DNA from: an uncultured virus (IMG/VR IMGVR_UViG_3300039159_000181)
Lineage: Duplodnaviria; Heunggongvirae; Uroviricota; Caudoviricetes
IMG/VR virus record: IMGVR_UViG_3300039159_000181
Length of the DNA stretch: 64,000 nucleotides
Reading direction: 5' to 3' (one strand)
A program made the position numbers and the translations under genes. A model generated the notes under the pieces. That model did no database searches. It was not told the DNA's origin and saw nothing but the letters and a program-made list of their open reading frames with translations. Positions 1-63,626 of the stretch are shown here, piece by piece (the stretch's first letter is position 1; every line of letters starts with the position of its first letter).

Positions 1-1
1 C

Positions 2-1249
2 ACCTGCGCTGACCAGCGCGGTGACCGTCATGACCCGAACGCTGACGCTCGGCCTGCGGGTCGGCGAGAGCAGGAACGCCTGACCAAGGATGCACAGCAG
101 ACCGAGAAGGATGCCGACGACCTGACTGACGACGAGCCTGACTGGGGCACCGACGCTGACAGCCCGCGTGATGCAGACGACGCTGACGGCGACGACGGTG
201 AAGCTGACGACGGTGACGGTGACGACGGTGACGGTGACGACGGTGACGGTGACGCTGACGGTGACGGTGACGGCGACGAGGGTGCTGAGGGTGACACTGA
301 CGGCGACGGTGGTGGCTCCCTGGCAGGCACCAAGGCGGGCGCTGAGGCGGCAGAGAAGGCACTGCAGGATGCCCTCGACGGAGCCTACGAGGCCGTGAAG
401 GATGAGGTCTCCCGTGACCTGCGCGCCTTCAACGGCGATGCAGAGCTCGCTGAGGGCGGCACCTCACACCTGGCCCCCTACATCGGCTACACCGAGCGCG
501 CGGCAGAGGCCATGACAGTGCGGGCAAGCCAGGCGTTTGGCACGGAGCTAGAACTCCTCAAGGCTGAGTCTGACCCCGGTTGGGAGCGGATGACAGGGTC
601 AGGCCGCATCAACGCCGCGCGCTACCTGCGGGGTGCTGACCTGGACGAAGCCTTCGACCGCTGGGAGAGCGACAAGGAAGACAGCCTCGACATTGAGGCG
701 GTCATCCTGCTCGACCACAGCGGCTCGATGGAGAGCGACATGGCCGGAGCTAACGACTCGATGTGGGCCATCAAGCGCGCTCTTGACCGCATCAACGCCA
801 GCACGACGGTGATTCTGTTCAACGAGGATGCTCATATCCTCTACTCCGCAGACGAGACCGCCACGAGCCGTGTGCGCGCCGCAAAGTCTTCCGGGGGGAC
901 AGTGCCCGGTACGGCACTGCGGCACGCTCGGCACATCCTGGCCAACTCCGGTCGCACGACGAAGATTCTCCTGTCCATCACGGACGGGGAGTGGAGCGCG
1001 ACCAAGGGCTGGTGGGGGAGTAGCAACGCCGTAGAGAGCGCCCGCGAAGCTACCCAGCCGGATAACAACGACGAGGTCGTCAGCGAGTTGCGGGAACACG
1101 GGGTACTCACCGCTATCTGCCACATTGGCCGAGCGTGGGGGGAGCCTGACGCGCACAACCACGAGGTCGTCATTCAACTGACGGACACCACGAAACTGTT
1201 CGCGGTAGCACGCGGACTCGTTCGAGCGGTAGCCGCACGCAATAACTAA
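2..1249 (+). CDS. VWA (MIDAS) domain protein, CobT-like, with long Asp/Gly acidic linker; 5' truncated
   Basis: The frame of ORF 395..1249 is open back to position 2 (…DADGDDGEADDGDGDD…). MIDAS motif LLDHSGS…GGT…ITDG. Confidence 0.8.
   Translation, partial: TCADQRGDRHDPNADARPAGRREQERLTKDAQQTEKDADDLTDDEPDWGTDADSPRDADDADGDDGEADDGDGDDGDGDDGDGDADGDGDGDEGAEGDTDGDGGGSLAGTKAGAEAAEKALQDALDGAYEAVKDEVSRDLRAFNGDAELAEGGTSHLAPYIGYTERAAEAMTVRASQAFGTELELLKAESDPGWERMTGSGRINAARYLRGADLDEAFDRWESDKEDSLDIEAVILLDHSGSMESDMAGANDSMWAIKRALDRINASTTVILFNEDAHILYSADETATSRVRAAKSSGGTVPGTALRHARHILANSGRTTKILLSITDGEWSATKGWWGSSNAVESAREATQPDNNDEVVSELREHGVLTAICHIGRAWGEPDAHNHEVVIQLTDTTKLFAVARGLVRAVAARNN
175..312 (+). repeat. Coding low-complexity GAC/GGT tandem repeat (Asp-Gly tract)
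   Basis: Repeated gacggtgacgacggt units, in frame in the VWA gene. Confidence 0.85.
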
Positions 1250-1304
1250 GCACCACGGGCGGGGAGCCACTCTCCCCGCCCGCACCAACCTAGAGGAGAA
1301 CAAC

Positions 1305-2060
1305 ATGTTGAACGCAGACTTTCAGAAGCTGGTCAAGAAGGGCACTGGCGCAGACTACTTCGCCGTCATCAAGCCGAACGTGTCGGTACGGGCAGGCACC
1401 TCCTGGACGACGGAGAATGTCCCCGCCGAGAAGATAGTAAAGGCGAGACTGATGTTCACCTTCGGAGTTAGCTCCGACACGCACCGCATCACCGGCTACA
1501 CAACCTCACCCGGCTCCTCTGTGGGCCTCGTCGGCCCCGGTCACTGGCCCGTGGAGGTGCAAGAGATGAACGCGCCTAGCTGGGACGATGCGCTGGATGG
1601 GTGGCGAGCACGCAAGGCTCCCGACGGGCAGAGAACGAAATACTACGTCTTCGTCGTCGACGACGCTCAGGGCTTGGCCGCGGGCATCTTCGCGGTGCCG
1701 GTCAAGCATGTCGTCGGTGCCTGGGATGCCGCAGTCGACGCTCGCTTTCACGCCGAGGCCATCGCCAAGAAGGCCGAGACAGACCTGGCCAAAGAGCGAG
1801 AAGACCGCGTGGAGATTGCCAGAACGCAGGGCGAGTCGGCCATGAATCACCGCGTGCTGGCCATCAACGACTTTGTCGCTGAGGTGGTGGGCAAGCCTGA
1901 CTCGGTGCGCGTCACCGCCAAGGGCAGTGTCGGCTGGGACAGCATCCTCGACCGAGCACGATTCACCGTCGCTGGCACAGTGACGATGACCATTGCCGAC
2001 TTCAACCGTGTGCTCAATACCATCAGCGAGTTGAAGACTGAACTCGCTGACCGAGGGTAG
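1305..2060 (+). CDS. Hypothetical phage protein
   Basis: 251-aa ORF with RBS GAGGAG. Confidence 0.8.
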   Translation: MLNADFQKLVKKGTGADYFAVIKPNVSVRAGTSWTTENVPAEKIVKARLMFTFGVSSDTHRITGYTTSPGSSVGLVGPGHWPVEVQEMNAPSWDDALDGWRARKAPDGQRTKYYVFVVDDAQGLAAGIFAVPVKHVVGAWDAAVDARFHAEAIAKKAETDLAKEREDRVEIARTQGESAMNHRVLAINDFVAEVVGKPDSVRVTAKGSVGWDSILDRARFTVAGTVTMTIADFNRVLNTISELKTELADRG

Positions 2061-2138
2061 CCACGCTGTACCGGGGGGCGGGCAAGCCCCGCCCCCTGCG
2101 ACCCCCACCCGCCACAAACAACTCCAAAGGAGGTAATC

Positions 2139-2900
2139 ATGACCATCACAGACCATACCGAGAACGTGACATTCGACACCTACCGCTACCTGCAGGATGG
2201 CCTCGACTATTGGCCGGTGTGCAAGCGTTGCGGGGGCACCGGCAACGTCGGCATCTACTGGGTCGAAGGCGGTAGCTGTTTCGACTGCCGCGGTCGTGGC
2301 ACAACCGCGCGAGTTCCACTGACGGAAACCCAGGCCCGCACGCGGGCACAGCAACTCAACCGCTCACGAGATGCCCGCGTGGCAAAGCGCGCGAGCGAGC
2401 AGGAGAGCGGCCTTGCCACCGCGCTCGCTCTGCGAGCAGCGTTTGAAGCTGCGCATCCGGAGCTTGTCGGCGCACTGCAGTCGGCTCAGGGTGGCTTCTT
2501 GGAACGACTGCGCGAGGCGCTGGAGCAGAGCGGAACGCTCACCGCGAACCAAGTCAAGGCAGGCCTCGACGTGATGGCCAGCGATGCCGAGAGGGCACTC
2601 CTGCGGGATGAACGAAGCCTCCTCAGCCACGCTCTCGGTGAGCCGGGGGAGAAGGTCGCAGTCACCGGCACCATCGAGACCCTGACCAGCATTGCGGGAA
2701 GCTACGGAAGCTCGATGCTGGTGGTCTTGGTCACTGATGGGCAGGTCGTCGTCAAGACCTTCACCACAGCGGCATGGGGCTGGGAGGTATCGCGCGGGGA
2801 GCGGGTAACCCTGGCAGGAACCGTCAAGAAGAACGAGACCTACCAGGGCGTGACTGCCTCGGTACTGACTCGGTGCAAGAAGACAGCGGCAAGCGCGTGA
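2139..2900 (+). CDS. Hypothetical protein, N-terminal CxxCxGxG zinc finger, possible C-terminal OB-fold
   Basis: RBS AAGGAGG; CKRCGGTG…CFDCRGRG; beta-rich C-terminus. Confidence 0.75.
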   Translation: MTITDHTENVTFDTYRYLQDGLDYWPVCKRCGGTGNVGIYWVEGGSCFDCRGRGTTARVPLTETQARTRAQQLNRSRDARVAKRASEQESGLATALALRAAFEAAHPELVGALQSAQGGFLERLREALEQSGTLTANQVKAGLDVMASDAERALLRDERSLLSHALGEPGEKVAVTGTIETLTSIAGSYGSSMLVVLVTDGQVVVKTFTTAAWGWEVSRGERVTLAGTVKKNETYQGVTASVLTRCKKTAASA

Positions 2901-2986
2901 GGCGGCTCGGGCAGGTCATCGGCGTTCTCATCCTTGTAGGGCTGTACCTCGTAGCGGGAAGTATCTGCGAAGTTCCAGCTTGCTAA
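2897..2986 (+). CDS. Small putative membrane peptide (29 aa)
   Basis: GTGA overlap with the upstream stop; MRRLGQVIGVLILVGLYLVAGSICEVPAC. Confidence 0.5.
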   Translation: MRRLGQVIGVLILVGLYLVAGSICEVPAC

Positions 2987-3042
2987 GCACTCGGGGGGCA
3001 AACCCCCCAGACCCCCCACCAACACCGACGAAAGGCACGACC

Positions 3043-3213
3043 ATGATGAACATGCTAGAAGGCTCCGCGAGTGTGGGGGAGTGGCGCGTCCGTGTACAGG
3101 GCGAATGGGTGTTCACGGGAACCCGCAAAGAAGCGCGTCGTCAGGCTGATGCTGAGGCTGAACGGGAGTGGCAACCCGACGCGAAAGTGACCATAAGGAT
3201 TGTCAAGAACTAG
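3043..3213 (+). CDS. Small hypothetical protein
   Basis: GAAAGG RBS before ATG at 3043. Confidence 0.7.
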   Translation: MMNMLEGSASVGEWRVRVQGEWVFTGTRKEARRQADAEAEREWQPDAKVTIRIVKN

Positions 3214-3215
3214 CA

Positions 3216-3265
3216 GGTCGAAACCGCGAGAGCGGTCTTGGGGTGATGCCCCAACTGACGAGACC
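3216..3265 (+). ncRNA. Type II hammerhead ribozyme
   Basis: GGUC-GAAA-CCGC(GAGA)GCGG-UC^-UUGGGG(UGAUG)CCCCAA-CUGACGA-GACC. All conserved core nucleotides and three perfectly paired stems are present. Confidence 0.93.
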
Positions 3266-3276
3266 AAGGAGTCATC

Positions 3277-3672
3277 ATGCACCTCAGCACCCGCAGTGCG
3301 GCAAAGCGCCGAGAGCAAGCCATCAAGATTCTGCAGGCCCGAGTGGCTCTGCGGATGACAGCCTTTCCGGAGGTCTTCCCTGGAGGAGAGAACCTCCTGC
3401 GGCTGAGCCTCGAACGACTCGATGAGTACACCTCGCGGAAAGACCCGTTCGTCGTTACGCGGAGGGTCTATCTGCCCACATTTCGAGAGCACCAACGGCT
3501 CAGCAACCTGGGGTTAACTGAGGTCGAGTACATGTTGGAAACTATCTCTCGCGGGTGGCTCCTACTTGCCACAGCGGAGACCTCAAAGGTCAGCATCACT
3601 CCCCAGAGCATCATCGAGTACAAACCCCTAAGCCGATTCTTCAAGAAGGAGAGCACCAATGAAGCTGTTTAG
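3277..3672 (+). CDS. Hypothetical protein
   Basis: AAGGAG RBS immediately after the hammerhead. Confidence 0.75.
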   Translation: MHLSTRSAAKRREQAIKILQARVALRMTAFPEVFPGGENLLRLSLERLDEYTSRKDPFVVTRRVYLPTFREHQRLSNLGLTEVEYMLETISRGWLLLATAETSKVSITPQSIIEYKPLSRFFKKESTNEAV

Positions 3673-4045
3673 CCTGTTCCGTAAGAACCACCTCGTCCAG
3701 CAGATTGCAAGCGACAGCGGAGCAACCACCCTCACGCTCAACAGCGCCTACGCAGAAGAACGGCGAGCGCGAAACGCGCACTGGTGGGCGTGCGCTACCG
3801 AAGCAGTAGAGCGGCTCGTGCTGAGGAACCGCCCCTTCACCGCAGACGATGTCTGGTACGAGTTGCGGGCCACGCGGCCCGAAGCACAGACCACCGACAA
3901 CCGAGCAATGGGGAGCGTCATGCAGGCCGCATGCCGCGATGGTCTCATCGTGCCTACCGCGGAGTTTCGAGCCAGCAACCGCCGCTCGACGCATCGTAAC
4001 CCAAAGCGCGTTTGGGCACCGGCACCCGCGGGAGGCACCGTGTGA
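3659..4045 (+). CDS. Hypothetical protein, possible winged-helix
   Basis: RBS AAGGAG; FTADDVW…NRAMGSVM…GLI pattern. Confidence 0.7.
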   Translation: MKLFSLFRKNHLVQQIASDSGATTLTLNSAYAEERRARNAHWWACATEAVERLVLRNRPFTADDVWYELRATRPEAQTTDNRAMGSVMQAACRDGLIVPTAEFRASNRRSTHRNPKRVWAPAPAGGTV

Positions 4046-4263
4046 GCCTCCGTAAGGAGATGAAGCAACTCCAAGAAGAGGCTACCAATCAGGGGTGGGA
4101 AGTGCGCATCCTCACTTCCGGTCATTTATGCTGGGTCTCCCCCGAGGGCCGAAAGGTGTTCGGGGCACAGACACCCTCAGACCCCCGCGCAATACTCAAC
4201 CACCGCTCGATACTCCGCAGGTACGGGTTCCGAGTCGTGGCACTCCAGGAGAAGTCAAAGTGA
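4042..4263 (+). CDS. HicA-like protein
   Basis: GTGA overlap; 73 aa with GWEVRILTSGH…TPSD…LRRYG, typical of phage HicA-like proteins. Confidence 0.65.
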   Translation: MSLRKEMKQLQEEATNQGWEVRILTSGHLCWVSPEGRKVFGAQTPSDPRAILNHRSILRRYGFRVVALQEKSK

Positions 4264-4278
4264 AGCACAAGAAGGAGA

Positions 4279-4500
4279 ATGACAATGTCGAACAGCACAT
4301 CGCCTCACACCATTGGTGGCGAGGTCTACTTAACCGGAAAGGAGCTCGCCATTCACGTCGGGTTCCCCTACCCACAGCTTTGGACGCGGCTCGCAAGAGG
4401 CACCCTGCCTTTAGCGGACGTGAACCTGGGTCTCAAGCCGCTCTGGAAGATGAGCAACGTCGACGTCTGGCTCAAGGAGCGGGAGGAAGCGAAGCCGTGA
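4279..4500 (+). CDS. AlpA/excisionase-like HTH DNA-binding protein
   Basis: YLTGKELA…LP…PLWKMSNVDVWL. Confidence 0.7.
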   Translation: MTMSNSTSPHTIGGEVYLTGKELAIHVGFPYPQLWTRLARGTLPLADVNLGLKPLWKMSNVDVWLKEREEAKP

Positions 4501-4823
4501 GCAACCTAGCACCACAGCTTCGCGCGGCCATCGAGGTTCTGGAGCAGCTTCGGGCTGACAGCACCCCGGTGGCCGGGGCAGGCTCGGCGGCGGGAGAGGT
4601 CGCGGGGTGGGAACAGGCGCACCGAGTCCTCAGCCTGCACCGGCTGTTAGATGCCCAGACGCAGTCACTGCAGGCAGGCTTGGTGTGGGTGCAAGAGTTC
4701 GAGAGCAATCCCGACATGGTCTACCGTGACGGACGCAGAATGCCGGTAGACCGACTCTTCAAAGCCACCCCCGATGGGCGAGCATGCCTACGGCTCGTCG
4801 AAGCACTACTCACCGCGAAGTAG
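4497..4823 (+). CDS. Hypothetical protein
   Basis: GTGA overlap start; 3' part of the 4095..4823 ORF. Confidence 0.65.
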   Translation: MSNLAPQLRAAIEVLEQLRADSTPVAGAGSAAGEVAGWEQAHRVLSLHRLLDAQTQSLQAGLVWVQEFESNPDMVYRDGRRMPVDRLFKATPDGRACLRLVEALLTAK

Positions 4824-4839
4824 CGCCCCAGGCGCGCAC

Positions 4840-4888
4840 AAAGCCCCCCACTTCCGAGCAATCGGTGGTGGGGGGCTTTTCGTGTTTC
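4840..4888. terminator. Intrinsic terminator between convergent transcription units
   Basis: AAAGCCCCCCAC…GTGGGGGGCTTTT hairpin with flanking A/T runs. Confidence 0.8.
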
Positions 4889-4944
4889 AGCGTGTCTTAC
4901 CTGCGGCTACCCGAAGCCGAGCCTCGGACGAGCCTGTTATCAAC

Positions 4945-6474
4945 TCAGATGTCTTCTAGCGCCTGCTGGATAATGAGCGTGGTCTGCTCCTCTGAGAGCT
5001 TCGCAGGCTCATCCCTGACGGCCTGAGCCTGGTTGCCAAAGATGCGGCTGAGCACCCCCCCGGAGGACTGCCGCTCGATGGTAATGCGCTCGAACTCTCG
5101 GTTCTCATCCATCTTTTTCATGGTCGAAACGAGCTTGAAGAGGCGGTCTACTTCTTGACTTAGGTTGGGGTCGCTGTAGCCGCCTCCGACATCCTCCGCG
5201 AACTTCATGAAGGCCACCCGTTGCCCCTGCATCTCAACAACGGACAGGAGAAGCGCCTTCAACTGGTCGGCAGTTTGTACCTGTACCGGAAGGTTAAACG
5301 CGCAGACCGAACCGGGCTTGAAAGCGGGGCAGTTGGCCGCGACAAAGCAGGTGTCGCACTGCCGCATGCTGGTCGCCTGAGAGCGCATCATGGGCAAGTC
5401 TTTGAGCGTCTGTGTGCCGTCCTCTGCGACGTCGATAACCTTCTGTATCTCGATACCTACCCCAGGCAGAATTGTCATCTCCTGGGGGTCACGAGGGGCC
5501 GGAGGAGTGGCACTAACATTCCGCACTCCGACATCACTGTTAGTAGATGCCCCTATGCCCATTTCCATCAAACCGGTGTATAGGGTGTCATCACTGTTAT
5601 CAGCTACTTTCTTGCCCTCGCCCGGTGTGCGACCCCCGGGGATGGAAGTAAGTCTCTTTTTACGCTCTTCTTTGTCCATGGCAATCTCCAGTTGACGGTA
5701 TGACCACACAGCAACCTTGGTGGCTTCCAGGGTGTCGTCATCGAGGAACTTCTCAAAGTCCAAGCCAGCGCCCGTGACTAAGCTCTTGTACCGAGGCCGA
5801 GCCTGCGCCTTCATTCGCTTGGGATAGCGGACAAGCTTGGAGCCGTCCCAGACAATGGTCTCGCCACGGCGCATCGGGGAGAGCCACGAGAGCGTGCTGG
5901 CGGTGCTAAACGGAATCTGCCGGAGGTTGTCGGGCTTAGCCACGGCGAGAGCGTGGAAGGCCACAGGGTACTGCGTCTGCAACTGGCGCGTGATGCCCGC
6001 AAGGTTTGTGGCGGATTCGACCGTGGCCCCGGGGATAGCGATGTTCGCGTATGACTCCGCCCACCTCCGTAAGACGGGGATACCGTAGCTTTCGTGCCAC
6101 ACCACCCACATCTTCGGGTCGTTCTCAAAAGCTGCGCGGTTAGCCGCAATGGCCGGAAGCCCCAGCTTCTGACTGTCAAACTCGACCCAGCCCTCGATGC
6201 GGTCGTAGTTGTAGGCAATGAAGTCTTCGTACTCACCGGCGTACTCATCACGCTCTCGGACAGTGAGTTCAGCCTTGTCGGCTTGAACAGAGCCGCTGTC
6301 TATCCAGACCTTCATCTCGGGAAGGAAGTGCTCCCCCACAAGGTACGGCTTCGTCTTAGGCAGGCCGCGCTTGCGCAACCCCCAGAAGTTGAGCATGACG
6401 GAGTCGACTCCTGCGCGCTCCAACAGGGTGCGGTTAGAGGGAACCTCTACCCCGCCAAAGACAAGAGCGGTCAT
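4945..6474 (-). CDS. TGT/DpdA-like barrel (divergent) fused to a Cys4 cluster and helical C-terminus
   Basis: VWIDSG; FHALA…PFSTASTLSW resembles the HGLG…SVDSTSW motif; CDTCFVAANC…C. Confidence 0.5.
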   Translation of the reverse strand: MTALVFGGVEVPSNRTLLERAGVDSVMLNFWGLRKRGLPKTKPYLVGEHFLPEMKVWIDSGSVQADKAELTVRERDEYAGEYEDFIAYNYDRIEGWVEFDSQKLGLPAIAANRAAFENDPKMWVVWHESYGIPVLRRWAESYANIAIPGATVESATNLAGITRQLQTQYPVAFHALAVAKPDNLRQIPFSTASTLSWLSPMRRGETIVWDGSKLVRYPKRMKAQARPRYKSLVTGAGLDFEKFLDDDTLEATKVAVWSYRQLEIAMDKEERKKRLTSIPGGRTPGEGKKVADNSDDTLYTGLMEMGIGASTNSDVGVRNVSATPPAPRDPQEMTILPGVGIEIQKVIDVAEDGTQTLKDLPMMRSQATSMRQCDTCFVAANCPAFKPGSVCAFNLPVQVQTADQLKALLLSVVEMQGQRVAFMKFAEDVGGGYSDPNLSQEVDRLFKLVSTMKKMDENREFERITIERQSSGGVLSRIFGNQAQAVRDEPAKLSEEQTTLIIQQALEDI

Positions 6475-20188: not shown

Positions 20189-20622
20189 TTCTTACCCTTC
20201 TCCGTTTTCAGAACAGCCGTAGGTGTGCCAAGAACCAGTAGGCCGAGGCCCAGTAACTGCGAGATAGATGCCGCGGTAGACCGCAGGATGACCTCCGAGA
20301 GGGATGCCTGAGAGGCCACGGCAAACTCCATCACCCGCTCGCGTTCTTCGGGGGACAGTGACTCCAGGTGCTCCGCGACCATCGCACCAGAGGACGCGAG
20401 AGAGTGCGCGGCAAGCAGGGGAATAAGAGTCTGTACGTTTTTTAGCCGCTCTTCGCTCGCTTGCTCTTCGTGGTCCAGAACGTCGGGCGACATGGGGACC
20501 TTATCCGGAGAAAGGTGCCGGTGAGCGTTAGGCAGTCCTGTGTCCGAAAGGAACGTATGCAGGTGCTCTACTAACGGAATAGACAAAACAATAGCGGAGG
20601 GCTTACGGCGGAAAAACTTCAT
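20185..20622 (-). CDS. Hypothetical protein
   Basis: ATGA-coupled to the polymerase gene. Confidence 0.7.
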   Translation of the reverse strand: MKFFRRKPSAIVLSIPLVEHLHTFLSDTGLPNAHRHLSPDKVPMSPDVLDHEEQASEERLKNVQTLIPLLAAHSLASSGAMVAEHLESLSPEERERVMEFAVASQASLSEVILRSTAASISQLLGLGLLVLGTPTAVLKTEKGKK

Positions 20623-22676
20623 TTGGCCTCTCCCCAGCGGTCAACAATCTTGACGTCAGCAATAAGCGGAACTGTCATTTCCGGCAAGTGAATGCCTTCC
20701 ATAGATAGCCTAATGGCTTCTGCTGTTTCTTCCGCACGGCTCGCCGGAGTAGAAGTTACTAGCTCATCGTGAACCGTCAAAAGGACGTTTATATCGGGCT
20801 CATCGAGAAAGCAGGAGTGGGCGCGGACAATAGCGAGCTTCATGATGTCCGCCGCGGAGCCCTGAATAACGGTATTGAAAGCCTGCCTCTCGGCGCGAGA
20901 ACGACGAGAACGCTGTTCTTTATCCTTCTCCGTCATATCGCGGTACGGAATTGTCACGGCGGGCAGAAGAAGGTCAGGGATGTACCGCCGTCGACCAAAG
21001 ACCGTCTCGACATACGGGGTTCCCGAACGCTGACGTGCGAGCCTCACAATGCGCGCTTTGTACTGGCTGATGCGCGGGAACTGCTCCTCAAAGTCCGTCA
21101 TGAGCTGGCGTGCCTCGGTCATACTGCACCCGATGCTCGTGGCAACTTTATCCGGACCAATCCCGTACGACAGCGCCAAAACCATGGTCTTACCGCTGGA
21201 GCGGTCGATGTTGAGGCGCTCACCGATGGTGGTGTAAATGTCACGCCCTGCGCGGTAGTTCTCAATAAGGTCAGGGTCATTCGAAAAGGCGGCGATAACC
21301 CGCGGCTCAATCTGAGAGTAGTCCGCCACGACAAGCTGGTTGCCGGGCTCTGCGATAAACAGATTACGCACCATCTTCCCGTAGTCCGTTCGGGGGTTAG
21401 GGATATTCTGCATATTGGGCTTTGACGACGAGATGCGGCCAGTTTCCGCCCCGTGCGCTTTGAAGTCGGTGTGGACACGTCCGTCAATCAGCAGGCTCTC
21501 TCGCGGTACGAGCCTGGTCTTGCCGTTGGTGGTGCGCTTGACGAGGCCACCGGTGTACGGCATGACATACGTCGTCATGAGCTTATTGAGGTCTTGATAC
21601 GCCAGTAACGCATCTACCAAAGCGTCTTTGCCGCGGTAGAACTCCAGTGCATCCGCCGAAGTGGACAGCATCGTGTGGTCTACGTCATTACCGGCCTTGA
21701 CCGCCTCACGCCCGCGCTCCGTAAGCGCCGCCTGGAACTTGCGGTCGGGAGTAATGCGCGGCTTCTTGCTGTATCCCGGCGAGGCGAACAACAGCCGTTG
21801 CTTTTCTTGAATTGAATTAATGGGAAAGGCTTTACCGGCTAGACGGTAGACGTTGCCCTCGGCCTCTTCAATATCTGCAAGAAGCTGCACCCGGAGGGTC
21901 TCTAGCTTGTCGACGTCAAGGACGGCCCCTCGCAGCTCCATATCGCACAGGGCAACCAGGACATCCATCTCCAGCCGCCAGACGCGGCTCAAGGAGCCCT
22001 CCAGCTTGACGGCGAGCTTCTTGTACAACTGCCACGTCAACTCTGAGTCAATGGCTGAGTACAGCGCTACGTCTTCAAACGAGTGCAGGGCAATGTTGAC
22101 TCCGATGCCCTTCTCCATCTCGACTCCGAGGTTCCTCTTCACCGAGTCCTTTAGCTTCAGGGAGTTCTTGTGGAGGTTGTTGATGATGAACCCCGCCATC
22201 ATGGTGTCAAAGTGCGGGCCTGCCGGAACTGCGCCCCGGAAGTACTTCGCGACGGACTCCAGGTCAAACTTTGCGTTGTGCGCAATCTTGAGCGCAGGGC
22301 CGAACATGACCGGTCGAAGGGCCGCGAACACCGCCCCTGGGGTGAGTTGCTGTGGTGCCGGACCAAACACCGGCTCGCGCTTGCTGTCGGCTTGGGAGTA
22401 GTGCTTATCCGTTACCTCTTTGCCCTCGGCAAGCCTCCGGCGACCCTCCGCCAAGATAGGACGGTTCCAGCTTAGGAAAGAGCCGTGTGGGTGTCCCATG
22501 GGGATAACGTCGGTGCGGTTATCGGTCGCAAAGCTAATCCAACAGACGTCGTTTATCTTGCGGATAAGGCGGTTCTCGCCAATGGTCTCAACGTCGAAGG
22601 CGAAGGCCTCGACGGAGCGGTAGTGCGCGACGAACTCAGCTAGCTGAGACTCGGTGGTAATGAGATTGAACTCCAT
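20619..22676 (-). CDS. DNA polymerase family A with 3'-5' exonuclease
   Basis: AFDVET, HNAKFD, YSAID; TGRISSSKPNMQNIP; ADYSQIEPR; IQGSAAD; TVHDEL. Confidence 0.96.
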   Translation of the reverse strand: MEFNLITTESQLAEFVAHYRSVEAFAFDVETIGENRLIRKINDVCWISFATDNRTDVIPMGHPHGSFLSWNRPILAEGRRRLAEGKEVTDKHYSQADSKREPVFGPAPQQLTPGAVFAALRPVMFGPALKIAHNAKFDLESVAKYFRGAVPAGPHFDTMMAGFIINNLHKNSLKLKDSVKRNLGVEMEKGIGVNIALHSFEDVALYSAIDSELTWQLYKKLAVKLEGSLSRVWRLEMDVLVALCDMELRGAVLDVDKLETLRVQLLADIEEAEGNVYRLAGKAFPINSIQEKQRLLFASPGYSKKPRITPDRKFQAALTERGREAVKAGNDVDHTMLSTSADALEFYRGKDALVDALLAYQDLNKLMTTYVMPYTGGLVKRTTNGKTRLVPRESLLIDGRVHTDFKAHGAETGRISSSKPNMQNIPNPRTDYGKMVRNLFIAEPGNQLVVADYSQIEPRVIAAFSNDPDLIENYRAGRDIYTTIGERLNIDRSSGKTMVLALSYGIGPDKVATSIGCSMTEARQLMTDFEEQFPRISQYKARIVRLARQRSGTPYVETVFGRRRYIPDLLLPAVTIPYRDMTEKDKEQRSRRSRAERQAFNTVIQGSAADIMKLAIVRAHSCFLDEPDINVLLTVHDELVTSTPASRAEETAEAIRLSMEGIHLPEMTVPLIADVKIVDRWGEAK

Positions 22677-24455: not shown

Positions 24456-26021
24456 TTAGTTGATAGCTTGCTTCAGGAATGCTAGCAGGCTCCGGCTATC
24501 TAGTTCCATCCCGCCGACGTCGTCGACGCCGGAACCATCCAGCAGGGCACCGGCTACTGCAAGCTTCTGGTGGACCAGGTCATGCTGGCGAATATCCAAC
24601 GAGCGCTCCACTAGGAAGTCCTGGACAATGACCATCTTCCACTCTGAGGAGACCCGCTGAATGCGGCCATTTCGCTGGAGAAGAGCACCCGCTGACCAGG
24701 GGAGGTCGACGTTGACCAGCAGATTGGCCTGGGGGAGGTTGACGCCGTATCCGCCAGCATCTGAGCTGACGAACACCCGCACCTCGGGGTCCTCCTGGAA
24801 CAGCTTCTTGTTGGCGTCTTTCTGCGCGAGGGATAGCCTCCCGGAGTAGGGAACCGCCTTCGCCCCGAAGCGCGCGACCAAAGTCTCGACAGCATCGACC
24901 CAGGAGACAAACACCACGACCTTGTAACTCGGGTCAATCTCAAGAAACTCCGTGACGTAGGCCTCTACGGCATCGAGCTTGGGAGTGCCGTAATTGAACG
25001 CCAGCAGTCCCTCGTCAACCAACTGCGCGGCGTACGCGCTGCCGTCATCGCGGGTCGGGTCGTGGTGATGCTGCGCGGAAAGGGTGATGAGCTCTGGAGA
25101 CACGCAGAGTTGCCGGAGGCAGGTGATTCCGGACATCACCGCACCGAGCACAGCGTTTCGGGGGTCTTGATAGCCGAGGCCCGCTCCGCCATACAGCGTC
25201 GACAGGCTAAAGATGCCGCCGGTCTGCGCAAGCTTCTCTAGATGGGGCATAAGGTCTCCCACCAGCCTGCTATGGAGCTTTCGGCTCCGAGCATCGAGAG
25301 GCACCACGATGGGGTCGCGGTACATCGTGGTGGGCAGATACGGGGCGACCGCGGGGTCGGCTTGGGTACGGCGGACCATGACGGAGTCAAGCCGAGTGTG
25401 CAGGCCCGCTAGGTTTCGGTACCGCTCGACAGCCCCAAAGGTGTTGCGCTCGATGTAGGCCTCGTCAAAGGACTTAAAGTCGCCTAGAACTGTGCGGTCG
25501 ACAAACTCCATAATGGAGAACAGCTCCTCCGCGCGGCCATTCTCGATGGGGGTCCCCGTGAGCGCTAAGCGGTATGCGACCTTACGGGCCAGGGCCTTGA
25601 CGCGGCGGGTGCGCTGAGCTCTGAAGTTCTTCAGGGCAGTTACTTCGTCGCAGACGATGGCTGAAAACTCCATCTTGCCGAGCAACTTCCAGTCCTTGGT
25701 CACCTGCTCGTAGTTGACGATGACATACGAGAAGGTGCGCGCGAGGGAATACTGCTCAGCGCGCTGTTTCGGGGTTCCGGAAATGACGATGGATTTACGG
25801 TCGGTGAACTTTGCGATTTCTCCCGCCCACTGCGCCTTCAGCGTGGACAGCGCGACGATGAGCACCGGCTTCGTTACCGCTCCCTGCTCCCGCAGAGTTT
25901 CGATGGCCGCAAGAGACGTCGGAGTCTTACCAAGACCCATCTCGTACGCTACTAAGGCGCGGCCCGACAGGAGGACTTGTAGGTCCTGCTGTTGGTAAGG
26001 GTGAAGGGTTCCCGTAAACAT
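24456..26021 (-). CDS. SNF2-family helicase
   Basis: EMGLGKT, CDEV, LTGTPIEN, GGYGVNL, QRNGRIQR. Confidence 0.92.
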   Translation of the reverse strand: MFTGTLHPYQQQDLQVLLSGRALVAYEMGLGKTPTSLAAIETLREQGAVTKPVLIVALSTLKAQWAGEIAKFTDRKSIVISGTPKQRAEQYSLARTFSYVIVNYEQVTKDWKLLGKMEFSAIVCDEVTALKNFRAQRTRRVKALARKVAYRLALTGTPIENGRAEELFSIMEFVDRTVLGDFKSFDEAYIERNTFGAVERYRNLAGLHTRLDSVMVRRTQADPAVAPYLPTTMYRDPIVVPLDARSRKLHSRLVGDLMPHLEKLAQTGGIFSLSTLYGGAGLGYQDPRNAVLGAVMSGITCLRQLCVSPELITLSAQHHHDPTRDDGSAYAAQLVDEGLLAFNYGTPKLDAVEAYVTEFLEIDPSYKVVVFVSWVDAVETLVARFGAKAVPYSGRLSLAQKDANKKLFQEDPEVRVFVSSDAGGYGVNLPQANLLVNVDLPWSAGALLQRNGRIQRVSSEWKMVIVQDFLVERSLDIRQHDLVHQKLAVAGALLDGSGVDDVGGMELDSRSLLAFLKQAIN

Positions 26022-27027
26022 ATGCCCGCTCGCCGTAGAGGTAGGAGATTGCATTCTCCATTCCCCAAGTGATTTCCTCGTCGGTCATCTCTCCGGGGTC
26101 TTTCTTTCCAGTACTACCGTAGTTGAAGAATCGAGCATTAACGCCATATTTGTGGCACAGTTCCATAACCTCCTGCGAGGCCTTTCGACCGGCGGTATCG
26201 AGGTTGGGATTGTCAAAAGCAAAAACGACGTTATCCACCGAGCGAATGAGCTTGAACTGCTCATCGGACATAGAGGAGCCGCAGATAGCTACTGCGGATA
26301 TGTTTCCCACATCATAAAAACGGATGCAGTCCAACGGAGACTCCACAACCACTACCGAGTCTCCAGTGAGCTGCGGCAAGCCAAAGAGCGTCCGTGACTT
26401 CTTCATCCCCGGCGGTCGGTTGAAAAAGTGCTTGTGGAACTGGCCCTTCTCCTGCCATCCCAGCAGGTCGGGCCTAGAAGAGGCTCCAGAGTTATCCACC
26501 GAGCTGTCGAACTGCCAAATTGGAAGTACCCAGAGCTGCTTCTTCTCGTCCCAGAGGACTCCAAAGTGCGCAATGGCCTCTCCACTAACTCCTCTAGCCG
26601 TAAGTGCCTCCGTAGGAGGTGGCCCGAAGAGCGCCAGTCGGGCGCGGGACATCGGAACAACCGAATCAGCCGACTCCATGACACGTTTTGGGATGGACGC
26701 CAGCAGCGTCGCCAGCCGGTCGGGGTCAATCTCGGCGATGTTGTCCAGCCACGCGCGGGCGGCGACAAAGTCATACGAGACCTCATCGCCCCAAAGTACG
26801 GTGACGAAGCCCTGGACATCGGCCACCAGCGCAAGGAGACCCCCGGAATAGTGGCAGGAGAAGCAGATGTGCTGGCCCGTGGAGAGGTTGACCCACCAGG
26901 AGGGGCTGTTGTCCTCGCGACCGACAATGCGGCGATGCGCGGGGCACAGGGCGTTGGCCTCATTTCCCCGCACGCTGTAGTCGAGTCCGAGGGCCTCCAG
27001 GACCTCCTCGACATTTACGGTGCTCAC
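25927..27027 (-). CDS. DNA primase (zinc finger + TOPRIM)
   Basis: CPAH…CFSC; VVESPLD; FDN…AG; KDPGE. Confidence 0.88.
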   Translation of the reverse strand: MSTVNVEEVLEALGLDYSVRGNEANALCPAHRRIVGREDNSPSWWVNLSTGQHICFSCHYSGGLLALVADVQGFVTVLWGDEVSYDFVAARAWLDNIAEIDPDRLATLLASIPKRVMESADSVVPMSRARLALFGPPPTEALTARGVSGEAIAHFGVLWDEKKQLWVLPIWQFDSSVDNSGASSRPDLLGWQEKGQFHKHFFNRPPGMKKSRTLFGLPQLTGDSVVVVESPLDCIRFYDVGNISAVAICGSSMSDEQFKLIRSVDNVVFAFDNPNLDTAGRKASQEVMELCHKYGVNARFFNYGSTGKKDPGEMTDEEITWGMENAISYLYGERAYVYGNPSPLPTAGPTSPPVGPRLSSVRDGSW

Positions 27028-50770: not shown

Positions 50771-52309
50771 TTATTCGCCGGTCTTCTGGCTGAGGTTAAT
50801 AACGATGAACTCGGCGGGGTACTGAAGTGCCACGCCGACCTGGATGTTGACCTCACCATTGGCGATTGAGACCGATGAGTTGGTTTCTGAGTCACACTTG
50901 ACGAAGAAAGCATCGTCAGGAAGGACTCCTGCCAAGCCGCCTTGGTTGCGGTACTCATTGAGGAAGACGCCGAGGCTGGTGCGCAGGCGTCCCCACAGCC
51001 GCTCATCGTTGGCCTCAAATAGTGCAAACTGCGCGATTTCTTGGAGGCGGTTGCGGATGAAGAGCAGCGAGCGGCGGGTTGAGACATAGCGGTTTGCGGT
51101 GCCGTCTTGCTTCAGTGTCCGCCCACCCATAACCACGACTCCCGCGCCGGGGATGTCGCGGATAGCGTTGAGCGGGAAACTGCCCCCGTTGATTTCGTCC
51201 AACTCCGCATTGGTGAACCGACGCTCGATAGCGATGGCTCCCCCCAGGGCGCTACGCAGCCCTGCCGGTGACTTAAACGGACCAAACTGCAGGTCGGTAG
51301 CAAGGTACAGACCTGCGACCGCGCCTGCAGGGCCGACCAGTCGACGCGATGACGCATTTCGCCCCAGCGGGTCTTGGATGAATACGTTGGGGTAGTACAC
51401 CGCGCTGTTGGCGGAGCTACCCCGACTGGTGGCGTATGATTTCGCCGCCGGTACCGTGAGCGCGGGGGGAGTATCAATGACAGCAAAGCCGTCGTAGTTC
51501 CCGACCCAGGAGACGAGGGCATCATGTACCGCAGCACCGTCAGATAAGCCGAGGTCTTTGATAATCTCTGGAGCAAACAGCACCAGGGGGCTGGTGAGGC
51601 TTTCGAAGTCCTCCAAGGCTGCAGCGAACGCCGCAGGAAGGGCTTTATTGCCGTTGCTACCGCTGACCAGAGGCAGCACGCCTGCACCTGGAGCCAGAGT
51701 GTTAGCGTTCTGGATAGTGACCGTGATGTACGCAGACTCTTCGTTCACTACGGTGGACACAAAGTCGTTGGATGCAGCGTCGGTGAGAACGATGTTGGGG
51801 TATCGCTCGACCAGCTCATCGTCACTCGTCCCTACGTCGGCTCCGGTCTCTACGTACACATCGAGGTTGTACGACGGCACACCAGCCACAGAAACACCTT
51901 CAGTGAACTGAACTCGCAGACGGTTCCCGTCGAGGCCCTTGTTTTTGGCAGTTACGCTGCCGATGGTTCCTGTCGTAGCTGCCGGAATCGACGTGCTCGC
52001 GGCGGCTGCGTCCGCGCCGAGCACACGGCGGACAAAGAGGCTTGTCCCGCCGTTGCGGAAAAACTGCCCGATACCGAACGTCGCGGGAAAGGCGCTGTCG
52101 TAGCCACCAAAGCGGCGTACAAACTCAAACCACGAGGAGATAAGGACGGGGCTCTCGGGACCAGAAGCAAAGTGGCCAACGGCAGCACCGACCGCGTCGG
52201 CCTGGCTGTTGGGGGCGATGGGCGCAGCAAGATTGCGCTCACGGATGTACACCCCGGGGCGTCCGAAGGACGTGGAAGAGGAGGTGTTTCCTCCGTAGGA
52301 TATGGACAT
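50771..52309 (-). CDS. Tail sheath protein
   Basis: RPGVY; FFRNGG; AVYYP; RYVSTRR; FEAND; PAEFI. Confidence 0.95.
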   Translation of the reverse strand: MSISYGGNTSSSTSFGRPGVYIRERNLAAPIAPNSQADAVGAAVGHFASGPESPVLISSWFEFVRRFGGYDSAFPATFGIGQFFRNGGTSLFVRRVLGADAAAASTSIPAATTGTIGSVTAKNKGLDGNRLRVQFTEGVSVAGVPSYNLDVYVETGADVGTSDDELVERYPNIVLTDAASNDFVSTVVNEESAYITVTIQNANTLAPGAGVLPLVSGSNGNKALPAAFAAALEDFESLTSPLVLFAPEIIKDLGLSDGAAVHDALVSWVGNYDGFAVIDTPPALTVPAAKSYATSRGSSANSAVYYPNVFIQDPLGRNASSRRLVGPAGAVAGLYLATDLQFGPFKSPAGLRSALGGAIAIERRFTNAELDEINGGSFPLNAIRDIPGAGVVVMGGRTLKQDGTANRYVSTRRSLLFIRNRLQEIAQFALFEANDERLWGRLRTSLGVFLNEYRNQGGLAGVLPDDAFFVKCDSETNSSVSIANGEVNIQVGVALQYPAEFIVINLSQKTGE

Positions 52310-61895: not shown

Positions 61896-63626
61896 CTACT
61901 CGTCCTTGTCAACTACGCGGCGAGAAGGAAGTTTCGTGCCGTACGCAGCCTCAACCAGACGCATTCGCAACTCTTGCTCGCTGCCGCCCAGGAGACCGTC
62001 AAGCTGGGCATCGACGGGGCTCGCGCCCTCCGCGGCGGGGCCAGCGATGCCGTCGCCGAGGACATCCCCGTCACCGAGCATCATCGGGTCCATCGGCATC
62101 GCGGTTCCGTCAGGGCCTGGCATCATTCCGGTGAGGTCCACAATGGTCTTCTGGATGAGGACCTTGACCAAGTTCAGCGCGCCATCGGCCTCGGTGTCTT
62201 CGCGCAGTTCTTTACGGACTTCGGCCAGCTTCTCGTCCGGGAACTCGTTGCCCAGAAGACGCAGTGCGCCCTCTTTGGACTCAAGGCCCATCGACATCTT
62301 CATCTGCAGCTCGTTGAGCATGATGAGCTTATCGAGGGGTAGCGGGTCATTGAAGTGGGTGTAGGTCCGATACGTTATCGGGTCATTGGGGTCAAGCTGA
62401 GTCAGTTGGCCATCTTTGAGGGGGCCATCCTCTTCTGGGTTGTAGGTAAGGACTTCAGGCTCTTTAACCGCAAGGGTCAGCATAACCAGCTCGTTGACGC
62501 GCTCGATGCCCGCACCGTACTGCGCCGTCTTCTGCGACCAGCGGTTCATCAGCGGCTGGTACTGAATGCTCAGTGCCACGCCGGAGGTGTTGGAGATGGG
62601 CTGCATCTGGCCGAGGGCCGTCTCTGGCACATTCATCAGCTCGTGCATCGAGGTCTTGAGCATCCGAAGATACTCCATCGCTCCCGCAAGGCCGCTAGCG
62701 CCACCTTCGAGGTTGAACACCTGCGCGTCTTTAGGGAGACCTCCCCAGACCTTCTTGGCACCCTTTTCCAGGTTAGAGGCCTTCGCGCCCACGATAACGG
62801 TCACCGGAGCGGCGTGGTAGTTGACGATGTCTGCCACGTCGGTGGAGATTTCGTTGTAGGCGCGGTTCAGGGTGATGATGTCGTGTGCATCCGAAAGACC
62901 CCAGGGGGAGCCAGAGACGGGGATGTTGGGGATGTGGATAACGGGGATAAGACCCAGGGGGTTTGGTCGACTGTCGATGAGCTCATCGTTGACATACTCT
63001 TCGATGATGTCGTCGGTGAGAATCTCGGTGTAGGTGAACACCTGGCGGGTGCCTTCGAGCGAGGTGCCCCAGAAGCGGTACTTCTGCTTGAAGCGCAGGA
63101 GGCGTGTCCGGTCGTGGGGGTGGAACTCGGGAAAAGCAAAGGCGGGGTTTAGCGGCAGGATACGGACCTTGCCGGGGTGCATGCGGCCAATGGAGTCAAC
63201 CCACGGCTCCTCGTAGGCGACTTTGACGAAGGCATCTCCGGTGATGCCGCCAGTCTGCCCCAGCTCTGTGAGGACACGCATCTTGTCGTTGTCTTCTTCC
63301 CAGACCCGCTTCAGGCGGTCAGGGACAATAGCTTCGGTGGAGCGGGCACTGCGGAAGTGGATACCTGCGCCGAAAGTAAATCTAGTCAGGTAGTCGATAA
63401 ATGCGCGGTAGTAGTTAACCGCAATCTGCATCTCGCCCTGTTCCCGGCGGTAACCCCAGTGGTGACCTAAGTACATGGCCCAGTTGAGGGAGTACCGGTT
63501 TAGCCGCGGGCCGTGGACTTCAAACTCTTCGTCCGCCAGCTCGACAAGGCCCAGGGGGGAAATGGAGATGGTGAGGTCAGAAGAAGCGGCCCTATAGGAC
63601 GGGGGTGAGAAGTCTGCGAATGACAT
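61896..63626 (-). CDS. Portal protein (SPP1 gp6-like)
   Basis: NYYRAFID; TGDAFVKV; NPLGLIPVIHIPN; SNTSGVAL. Confidence 0.9.
   Translation of the reverse strand: MSFADFSPPSYRAASSDLTISISPLGLVELADEEFEVHGPRLNRYSLNWAMYLGHHWGYRREQGEMQIAVNYYRAFIDYLTRFTFGAGIHFRSARSTEAIVPDRLKRVWEEDNDKMRVLTELGQTGGITGDAFVKVAYEEPWVDSIGRMHPGKVRILPLNPAFAFPEFHPHDRTRLLRFKQKYRFWGTSLEGTRQVFTYTEILTDDIIEEYVNDELIDSRPNPLGLIPVIHIPNIPVSGSPWGLSDAHDIITLNRAYNEISTDVADIVNYHAAPVTVIVGAKASNLEKGAKKVWGGLPKDAQVFNLEGGASGLAGAMEYLRMLKTSMHELMNVPETALGQMQPISNTSGVALSIQYQPLMNRWSQKTAQYGAGIERVNELVMLTLAVKEPEVLTYNPEEDGPLKDGQLTQLDPNDPITYRTYTHFNDPLPLDKLIMLNELQMKMSMGLESKEGALRLLGNEFPDEKLAEVRKELREDTEADGALNLVKVLIQKTIVDLTGMMPGPDGTAMPMDPMMLGDGDVLGDGIAGPAAEGASPVDAQLDGLLGGSEQELRMRLVEAAYGTKLPSRRVVDKDE

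Follow-up and report, generated by a model that had tools for sequence, protein, structure and literature searches.

Type II hammerhead ribozymes, their frequency in bacteria and their clustering around prophage genes were described in 2011 by Perreault et al. (PMC3088659), who proposed that long phage transcripts are processed by them into single-gene or operon-length mRNAs. The same paper reports that in most type II hammerheads loop I pairs with the 3′ tail to form a pseudoknot. It also describes a hammerhead of the haloviruses HF1 and HF2 (HHphage), located 13 nt upstream of a start codon on a polycistronic early transcript, for which the mapped 5′ end lay no more than 3 nt from the cleavage site. 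In Desulfovibrio vulgaris, three type II hammerheads have been reported to cleave both in vivo, as assessed from the capture of 2′,3′-cyclic phosphate and 5′-OH ends, and in vitro (Olzog et al. 2021, PMC8782182). Herein, we analyzed a 64,000-nt stretch of DNA from an uncultured virus of the Caudoviricetes (IMG/VR record IMGVR_UViG_3300039159_000181), referred to as the window, in which an earlier note had proposed a type II hammerhead between two genes at 3216–3265 on the plus strand. Our results indicate that the sequence 3215–3266 (+) is almost certainly a ribozyme of this kind.

The locus can be compared directly with these systems. According to the 2011 paper, the type II hammerheads represented by the Rfam family RF02276 lie between phage genes, which is the same context as in the window. 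The D. vulgaris ribozymes, which we liken to the present one by context and type, adjoin hypothetical, phage-like and helix-turn-helix (HTH) genes, although they reside in a bacterial chromosome, unlike that of the window. The 13 nt between HHphage and its start codon are comparable to the 11 nt found here, whereas HHphage belongs to an archaeal virus, carries a core variant and, as described, stands ahead of the first gene rather than between cistrons. Thus, both the kind of ribozyme and the between-gene arrangement have been known since 2011 and are common, and the copy in the window is one more example.

We re-read the plus strand of the intergenic gap, which extends over 63 nt (3214–3276) between the open reading frames (ORFs) 3043–3213 and 3277–3672, as the earlier note had given it. 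From 5′ to 3′, the motif reads GGUC (3216–3219), GAAA (3220–3223), CCGC-GAGA-GCGG (3224–3235), UC (3236–3237), UUGGGG-UGAUG-CCCCAA (3238–3254), CUGACGA (3255–3261) and GACC (3262–3265), in full agreement with the sequence, core and coordinates proposed before. It is preceded by the TAG stop codon at 3211–3213 and followed by AAGGAG at 3266–3271 and an ATG at 3277. The parts of the element are as follows, with the class and alignment A1 described further below.

3215, plus strand: A that is conserved in the class and stays unpaired at the 5′ side of stem II; putative counterpart of the loop 2 3′ A of closed-loop hammerheads
3216–3219, plus strand: 3′ strand of stem II, GGUC (11.4–11.1), pairing with 3262–3265; exactly 4 bp
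3220–3222, plus strand: core G12-A13-A14, invariant in alignment A1, where the search pattern had fixed these bases
3223–3236, plus strand: stem-loop III, A15.1-U16.1 plus CCGC/GCGG, with a GAGA tetraloop
3237, plus strand: C17, with the predicted cut 3′ of the base, between 3237 and 3238, by hammerhead numbering
3238–3254, plus strand: stem-loop I, 6 bp UUGGGG/CCCCAA, loop UGAUG (U-N-A-N-G)
3255–3261, plus strand: core C3-U4-G5-A6-C7-G8-A9 (CUGACGA), read from the sequence
3262–3265, plus strand: 5′ strand of stem II, GACC (10.1–10.4), read from the sequence
3266–3271, plus strand: Shine-Dalgarno (SD) sequence AAGGAG, whose first A (3266) doubles as the conserved purine opposite A3215

The conserved hammerhead core is complete, comprising CUGACGA, GAA at 3220–3222, the A3223-U3236 pair and C3237 at position H17, which is not G. 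The canonical pairs next to the core are all present, namely G3262-C3219 (10.1-11.1), U3238-A3254 (1.1-2.1) and A3223-U3236 (15.1-16.1). Stems I and III each end in a loop and stem II is open, the topology of type II, and the stems are 4, 5 and 6 bp long. The cleavage position at C17 follows from standard hammerhead numbering. The stems listed in the earlier note were found as described, except that stem III reaches 5 bp once the obligatory A15.1-U16.1 pair (A3223-U3236) is counted. Because a conserved A flanks the motif on each side (A3215 and A3266), the full element extends to 3215–3266. Folded in isolation, the stem III hairpin has an energy of −7.5 kcal/mol and the stem I hairpin one of −9.1 kcal/mol, with a possible extra wobble pair of U3244 with G3248 in stem I.

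Whether such a motif can be expected by chance was assessed with a hammerhead descriptor (own script; all three permutations allowed; minimum stem lengths of 4, 5 and 6 bp), with which both strands of the 64-kb window were scanned. Exactly one match was obtained, the site at 3215–3266, and no match was obtained in 300 dinucleotide-preserving shuffles of the window, indicating that the motif is not a chance match. Even when the stems were relaxed to 3, 4 and 4 bp, only two matches appeared, in 2 of the 300 shuffles.

To place the element among its relatives, viral contigs were searched with two patterns; the class counts given below (n = 133, 139, 216 and 223) all refer to members among the matches listed. 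In search 1, stem II was fixed and stems I and III were free (pattern GGTCGAAA...TC...CTGANGAGACC), and at least 124 stretches were found. Of the 161 matches listed, 156 combined 3 bp or more in stem III with 4 bp or more in stem I, and 133 sequences were unique, with very different stem sequences. Search 2, in which stem II was free beyond the G10.1-C11.1 pair, yielded at least 128 stretches, and 139 of the 140 unique sequences listed had well-formed stems. The pattern also occurred in at least 126 stretches of one-per-species cellular genomes. The hosts among the matches listed were Acidobacteriota, Planctomycetota, Verrucomicrobia, Alpha-, Gamma- and Deltaproteobacteria, Bacteroidota and Synergistetes, together with Actinomycetes (Streptomyces, Phycicoccus, Kutzneria and Mycobacterium), Gastranaerophilales, a Firmicute and one Methanobacteriaceae bin. 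Judged by these patterns, the class is very abundant in viral contigs and bacterial genomes. The closest analogue among the matches listed (L120) shares the GAGA and UGAUG loops and the abutting AAGGAG with the window, while its stems I and III are entirely different in sequence.

Stem II of the class consists of exactly 4 bp and covaries (n = 139). The composition of its three variable pairs was as follows.

Stem II pair 11.2-10.2 (n = 139): UA 60, CG 42, AU 20, GC 16, other 1
Stem II pair 11.3-10.3 (n = 139): GC 108, AU 26, CG 2, other 3
Stem II pair 11.4-10.4 (n = 139): GC 110, AU 22, GU 4, other 3

The commonest variant of stem II, AGGU...ACCA, was present in 32 of the 139 members, and the position beyond stem II was never paired. 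Its 5′ flank was A in all 139 members of search 2 and in 132 of the 133 unique members of search 1, and at its 3′ flank 108 members had A, 21 had G, 8 had C and 2 had U (n = 139), giving a purine in 129. Stem-loop I was 17 nt long in 124 of 133 members. Within these 124, G at position 6 and C at position 12, which form the closing pair, were each found in 107, and in the loop U occupied position 7 in 123 members, A position 9 in 89 and G position 11 in 103. Position H17 was C in 125 of 133 members and N7 was C in 45 of 133. The window carries A3215, A3266 and the loop UGAUG, and thus matches all the peripheral features conserved in the class.

This architecture differs from the published consensus. 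Both the consensus given in the 2011 paper and the RF02276 model emphasize a very short stem II and a pseudoknot that joins loop I to the 3′ tail, whereas in the class of the window stem II is fixed at 4 bp and bordered by A and a purine, stem-loop I is 17 nt long with the loop U-N-A-N-G, and the pseudoknot is not enriched. The architecture is nevertheless not new, because a type II variant of the Burkholderia phage Bcep176 tested in the 2011 study already shows the A-GGUC-GAAAC start and the 17-nt stem-loop I. Compared from the primer sequences in Table S1 (JP202 and JP287), the Bcep176 construct begins with A-GGUC-GAAAC, a stem III hairpin and U-C, and continues with a 17-nt stem-loop I of the form N6-U-N3-G-N6 and then the core, like the window. 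Unlike the window, it has a core variation and a GAUC strand in stem II, and it comes from a cultured phage.

Covariation was measured in an ungapped alignment (A1) of 55 unique members that belong to a stem III length group different from that of the window. Standard pairs made up 99.4% of its 880 cells, compared with 65.1% in column shuffles and 29–42% when the partners were slid. Twelve of the 16 pairs had changed on both sides, and the other four were invariant, being fixed by the search pattern. There were 286 compensatory cells, compared with 80.7 ± 6.7 expected, a value reached in none of 500 shuffles, and the compensatory pairs included 4 of 6 in stem III and 5 of 6 in stem I. Strong covariation extends to each of the three stems over hundreds of class members that are independent of one another. 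The covariance model R1, derived from the 55 other members in A1, aligned over its full length with 3213–3268 of the window at 60.0 bits (E 4e-12). With the filters off, nothing in the rest of the 64-kb window scored above 10.6 bits with R1, indicating that the window holds a single copy. The identification as a type II hammerhead put forward in the earlier note was therefore borne out by the complete core and topology, the chance test, the R1 score, the covariation of the class, and the placement between a stop codon and an SD sequence described below.

Several results weigh against this identification or against a cut in the transcript. When the whole window was scanned with Rfam, there were no matches at the gathering threshold or at E ≤ 1 and no ribozyme family was reported. 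In a scan of 181 nt alone, Hammerhead_II (RF02276) was aligned end to end, at a score of only 18.1 bits (E 0.17) against a gathering score of 37. The minimum free energy (MFE) fold of 3210–3282 lacked stem II and had a z-score of only −1.09. The pseudoknot described by Perreault et al. for most type II hammerheads is not a feature of the class to which the window belongs. The syntenic relatives were 98.7–99.6% identical, with an identical ribozyme and no orthologous covariation. A promoter scan of 1–5400 found no sigma-70-like site. In the literature, we found no demonstrated function, and no test of stability or translation, for any phage hammerhead.

The Rfam comparison, which the earlier note had suggested as a check with Infernal, did not return the expected match, and the siblings of the window fared alike. 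In an Rfam scan of 20 class loci, none of the ribozymes at the pattern sites reached 37 bits; seven scored between 27.7 and 36.0 bits, one went to the type III model with 25.5 bits, and the other 12 were unlisted. Since 0 of the 20 siblings reached the gathering score, the low score of the window reflects a limit of the model and not a defect of the motif, and absence should not be concluded from a negative scan with Rfam. Compared with the class of the window, the RF02276 consensus is shorter in stem II and longer in stem I. The Rfam threshold thus misses an abundant subclass, and current annotation may undercount phage hammerheads. An MFE prediction without stem II is usual for hammerhead cores.

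The relatives of the locus were sought separately. Two viral contigs (G001, with loci L003 and L260, and another with L004 and L259) were 98.7–99.6% identical to the region, and their ribozymes were identical to that of the window. Locus searches with three flanking proteins, each used alone, returned only these two near-identical contigs, and blastn of 2700–4100 against 50,697 phage records gave no match. As the sole syntenic relatives are near-identical, orthologous covariation is uninformative. The search for covarying stems in related phages, also suggested in the earlier note, hence succeeded at the level of the class, with 12 of 16 pairs compensatory, and could say nothing at the orthologous site.

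We next consider how the open end of stem II could be held. A perfect 5-nt complement exists in the window between loop I (UGAUG, 3244–3248) and CAUCA at 3273–3277, which overlaps the start codon. In the class (n = 223), loop I matches of at least 4 nt to the downstream sequence occurred in 45 members, compared with 48.2 ± 5.4 expected from permuted controls, and 5-nt matches occurred in 11 members, compared with 8.3 ± 2.6 expected. In the 19 members with a UGAUG loop, the offsets of CAUCA were scattered (5, 7, 27 and 35). A pseudoknot of loop I with the 3′ tail at the start codon was therefore rejected as a class feature, the complements being not enriched and the offsets scattered.

The conserved peripheral bases point to another contact. 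According to Dufour et al. 2009 (PMC2632901), the canonical motif of natural hammerheads includes a reverse-Hoogsteen pair of a loop 1 U with a loop 2 A; at the base of loop 2, an R:A opposition (R, purine) is also essential, and loop 2 has the form R-Nn-A in 22 of 27 natural hammerheads. The U, A and R of this type I/III motif occupy positions corresponding to those conserved in the class, whereas loop 2 is open in the class and its ends run into the upstream stop region and the downstream SD sequence. The window holds U3244, A3215 and A3266, whose conservation in the class is 123 of 124, 139 of 139 and 129 of 139, respectively. The conserved U, A and R would accordingly fit the canonical loop-loop motif with loop 2 opened, in which, by analogy with the data of Dufour et al., A3215 would take the role of the 3′ A of loop 2, and A3266, also the first base of the SD sequence, that of the 5′ purine. 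If this contact is true, fast cleavage is predicted at physiological Mg2+.

The placement of the class relative to genes was examined in 216 unique members whose flanks covered 200 nt or more, leaving out the near-identical relatives of the window, with the antisense strand as the control. In 168 of 216 members, compared with 27 in antisense, the stop codon of an open frame upstream fell in the range of −3 to +6 nt from the conserved A, and a start codon preceded by an SD sequence and opening a reading frame lay 5–40 nt downstream in 163 of 216, compared with 8 in antisense. Both were found in 126 of the 216 members. The window shows the same intercistronic, sense-oriented arrangement, with a stop upstream and an SD-led start downstream; its stop codon ends 1 nt before A3215, and its ATG lies 11 nt past stem II. 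The spacer to the start codon had a median of 21 nt in the class (range 0–87) and was 11 nt or less in 15 of the 184 members with a detected start. The SD sequence AAGGAG begins at 3266, directly after the motif, so that the description of the ribozyme as abutting a ribosome-binding site (RBS) is correct and, with so few spacers of 11 nt or less, places the window at the tight end of the class rule. Because architecture and placement are sharply defined, the subclass can be annotated easily. As a natural system it is also well suited to studying what self-cleaving ribozymes do for phages, and the unusually short 11-nt spacer of the window offers a compact construct for tests of effects on translation.

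In 71 of the 216 members the conserved A lay inside the stop codon itself, at offsets −2 and −1. The shared base belongs to UAG-G... or to a UAA or UGA ending on A, such that one nucleotide serves both termination and the ribozyme flank.

Self-cleavage of the plus-strand transcript after C3237, which would separate the two cistrons, is quite probably the best explanation of the element. Once the polymerase had passed 3265, stems III and I would fold as hairpins, and the 4-bp stem II (GGUC/GACC) would then close the three-way junction. U3244, on the 5′ side of loop I, would dock on A3215, opposite A3266 at the open end of stem II, and the RNA would be cut after C3237. Hammerhead self-cleavage leaves a 2′,3′-cyclic phosphate and a 5′-OH. 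The upstream product would keep its stop codon and end 3′ in the stem III hairpin with the 2′,3′-cyclic phosphate. The 5′-OH of the downstream product would sit on the stem I hairpin, after which would come 11 unpaired bases, the SD sequence and the ATG at 3277; the centroid fold of this predicted 3′ product leaves the SD sequence unpaired. Since only the 4 bp of stem II join the two products, they would be expected to separate. The most likely effect would be two separate messages, each with its own stability and translation rate, and intercistronic processing of a polycistronic message is the most economical reading of the cut. A similar arrangement is used in the synthetic insulator RiboJ, in which a hammerhead stands just upstream of an RBS and cleavage leaves a defined 5′-OH leader with a hairpin, although RiboJ was engineered from the hammerhead of a plant satellite RNA and follows a promoter instead of lying between cistrons. 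The functional proposal of the earlier note, a hairpin-headed 5′-OH message with altered stability or translation, is reasonable and corresponds to a hypothesis already published (PMC3088659, PMC6765202).

The ribozyme could also be active in another role, with its cleavage coupled to upstream translation or serving to down-regulate one of the cistrons. A ribosome stopping at the TAG (3211–3213) would, from the size of its footprint, cover or unfold A3215, stem II and GAAA, and cutting would take place only on RNA molecules, or during intervals, without terminating ribosomes. The start of the ribozyme at −3 to +6 nt from the stop in 168 of 216 members, with the A inside the stop in 71, is tighter than compaction of the genome would by itself require, and a 2019 review describes the role of bacterial self-cleaving ribozymes as largely elusive (PMC6765202). 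Yet the dense arrangement of genes in phages could produce this geometry as well, and the spacer to the start codon is variable; we regard such coupling or down-regulation as unlikely. A related thought, to which we assign a small though slightly better chance, is that the class geometry as a whole is functional rather than mere compaction, through the stop-codon overlap and the type II permutation. If a terminating ribosome melts stem II, cleavage would read out upstream translation or transcription-translation coupling. The type II permutation itself may be selected between cistrons as the only one that leaves a protective hairpin on each new end, which would be stem III with the 2′,3′-cyclic phosphate upstream and stem I with the 5′-OH downstream.

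That the motif is a decayed or chance look-alike which does not cleave, its GC-rich hairpins acting as a stabilizer, an RNase III site or a weak terminator, is very improbable. Such a reading would account for the Rfam score below gathering and for an MFE fold not significantly more stable than shuffles, and some predicted hammerheads were inactive in the assays of Perreault et al. (PMC3088659). But the core is intact throughout, as are all the peripheral positions conserved in the class, the class model gives 60 bits, none of the 300 shuffles held a match, no U-tract follows the hairpins, and a terminator scan listed nothing at the site. The proximity of the SD sequence, which starts at the first base past stem II with a spacer among the shortest of the class, together with the perfect 5-nt complement of loop I over the start codon, could instead suggest that the uncut fold blocks initiation, by the SD sequence abutting stem II or by a pseudoknot of loop I with the start codon, and that cleavage relieves the block. 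However, the SD sequence is unpaired in the hammerhead fold, complementarity to loop I is not enriched in the class and the CAUCA offsets are scattered, and the loop bases involved are those conserved for the tertiary contact. Moreover, both partners of the pseudoknot would be part of the 3′ product, so that the cut would not release it, and we consider this the most far-fetched of the explanations. Separation of two cistrons by self-cleavage is thus retained as the preferred reading.

The window belongs to a tailed phage. PHROGs assigned a portal protein to 61896–63626, a tail sheath protein to 50771–52309, a DNA polymerase to 20619–22676 and a helicase to 24456–26054. The plus-strand genes at 395–4823 would form a multi-gene transcription unit of a myovirus-like phage, and from 4945 onward nearly all genes are on the minus strand. 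Codon scores were positive for the plus-strand ORFs 395–1249, 1305–2060, 2139–2900, 3277–3672 and 3659–4045, whereas the overlapping minus-strand ORFs in 395–4823 scored negative or near zero, with a maximum of +0.08 per codon at 2364–2630. The ORFs that flank the ribozyme are the following.

3043–3213, plus strand: upstream small ORF of 56 amino acids from the ORF list, with an alternative TTG start at 2980 and the TAG stop at 3211–3213
3277–3672, plus strand: downstream gene for an orphan protein of 131 amino acids, called from its codon score

The codon score was +0.20 per codon for 3277–3672 and weakly positive (+0.12) for 3043–3213; the minus-strand ORFs 3055–3495 and 3210–3431 had negative scores. 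The small ORF 3043–3213 had no family match in Pfam or PHROGs. No Pfam or PHROG family was found for 3277–3672 either, and the sole match of its protein among 5.8 billion proteins was itself or near-identical copies. Further downstream, 4012–4263 belongs to phrog_2089, a family of unknown function, and 4279–4500 is a DNA-binding protein by PHROGs (phrog_597, E 1.1e-5). The labels "HicA-like" and "HTH" that had been given to downstream genes were not supported by Pfam, in which no family was found at E ≤ 0.1, and the HicA-like label was not confirmed by PHROGs either.

Other features of this region are recorded for completeness. A GGGGGG-CAAA-CCCCCC hairpin without a T-run is located at 2993–3008 (+), in the gap after the gene 2139–2900. 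Between the convergent plus- and minus-strand units, at approximately 4843–4886 (+), a 9-bp hairpin is followed by the T-run TTTTCGTGTTT; from its sequence, it looks like a terminator at the end of the plus-strand operon. A consensus terminator scan listed neither of these two hairpins. On the minus strand, 4945–6474 encodes a protein of 509 amino acids that matches phrog_887, queuine tRNA-ribosyltransferase (E 3e-55). Presumably, a protein of this type may be DpdA-like and take part in 7-deazaguanine modification of phage DNA. Relative to the window and to L259, the near-identical contig G001 (L001:780–1500) carries a 709-bp insertion at window positions 3016–3053, just upstream of 3043–3213. 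The insertion holds further open reading frames, and a similar leader (ccaaca...acgaaaggcacg) stands before both the inserted block and the small ORF; the insertion resembles cassette-style gene gain or loss.

Some of the other class loci contained additional elements. In L026, a second hammerhead outside the class pattern (931–995, minus strand) scored 49.4 bits and was the only one of the scanned set above the Rfam gathering score, so both hammerhead architectures occur together on this contig. A long hairpin lies near the class hammerhead in L054 (445–538), where animal microRNA-precursor models match both strands, all below gathering (best model mir-1263, 52.9 bits vs 95); it is probably a long inverted repeat. 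Several contigs carry multiple pattern matches within a few kb, with six on the 125.7-kb contig of L130–L133, eight on the 67.6-kb contig of L147–L149 and five on that of L023/L024.

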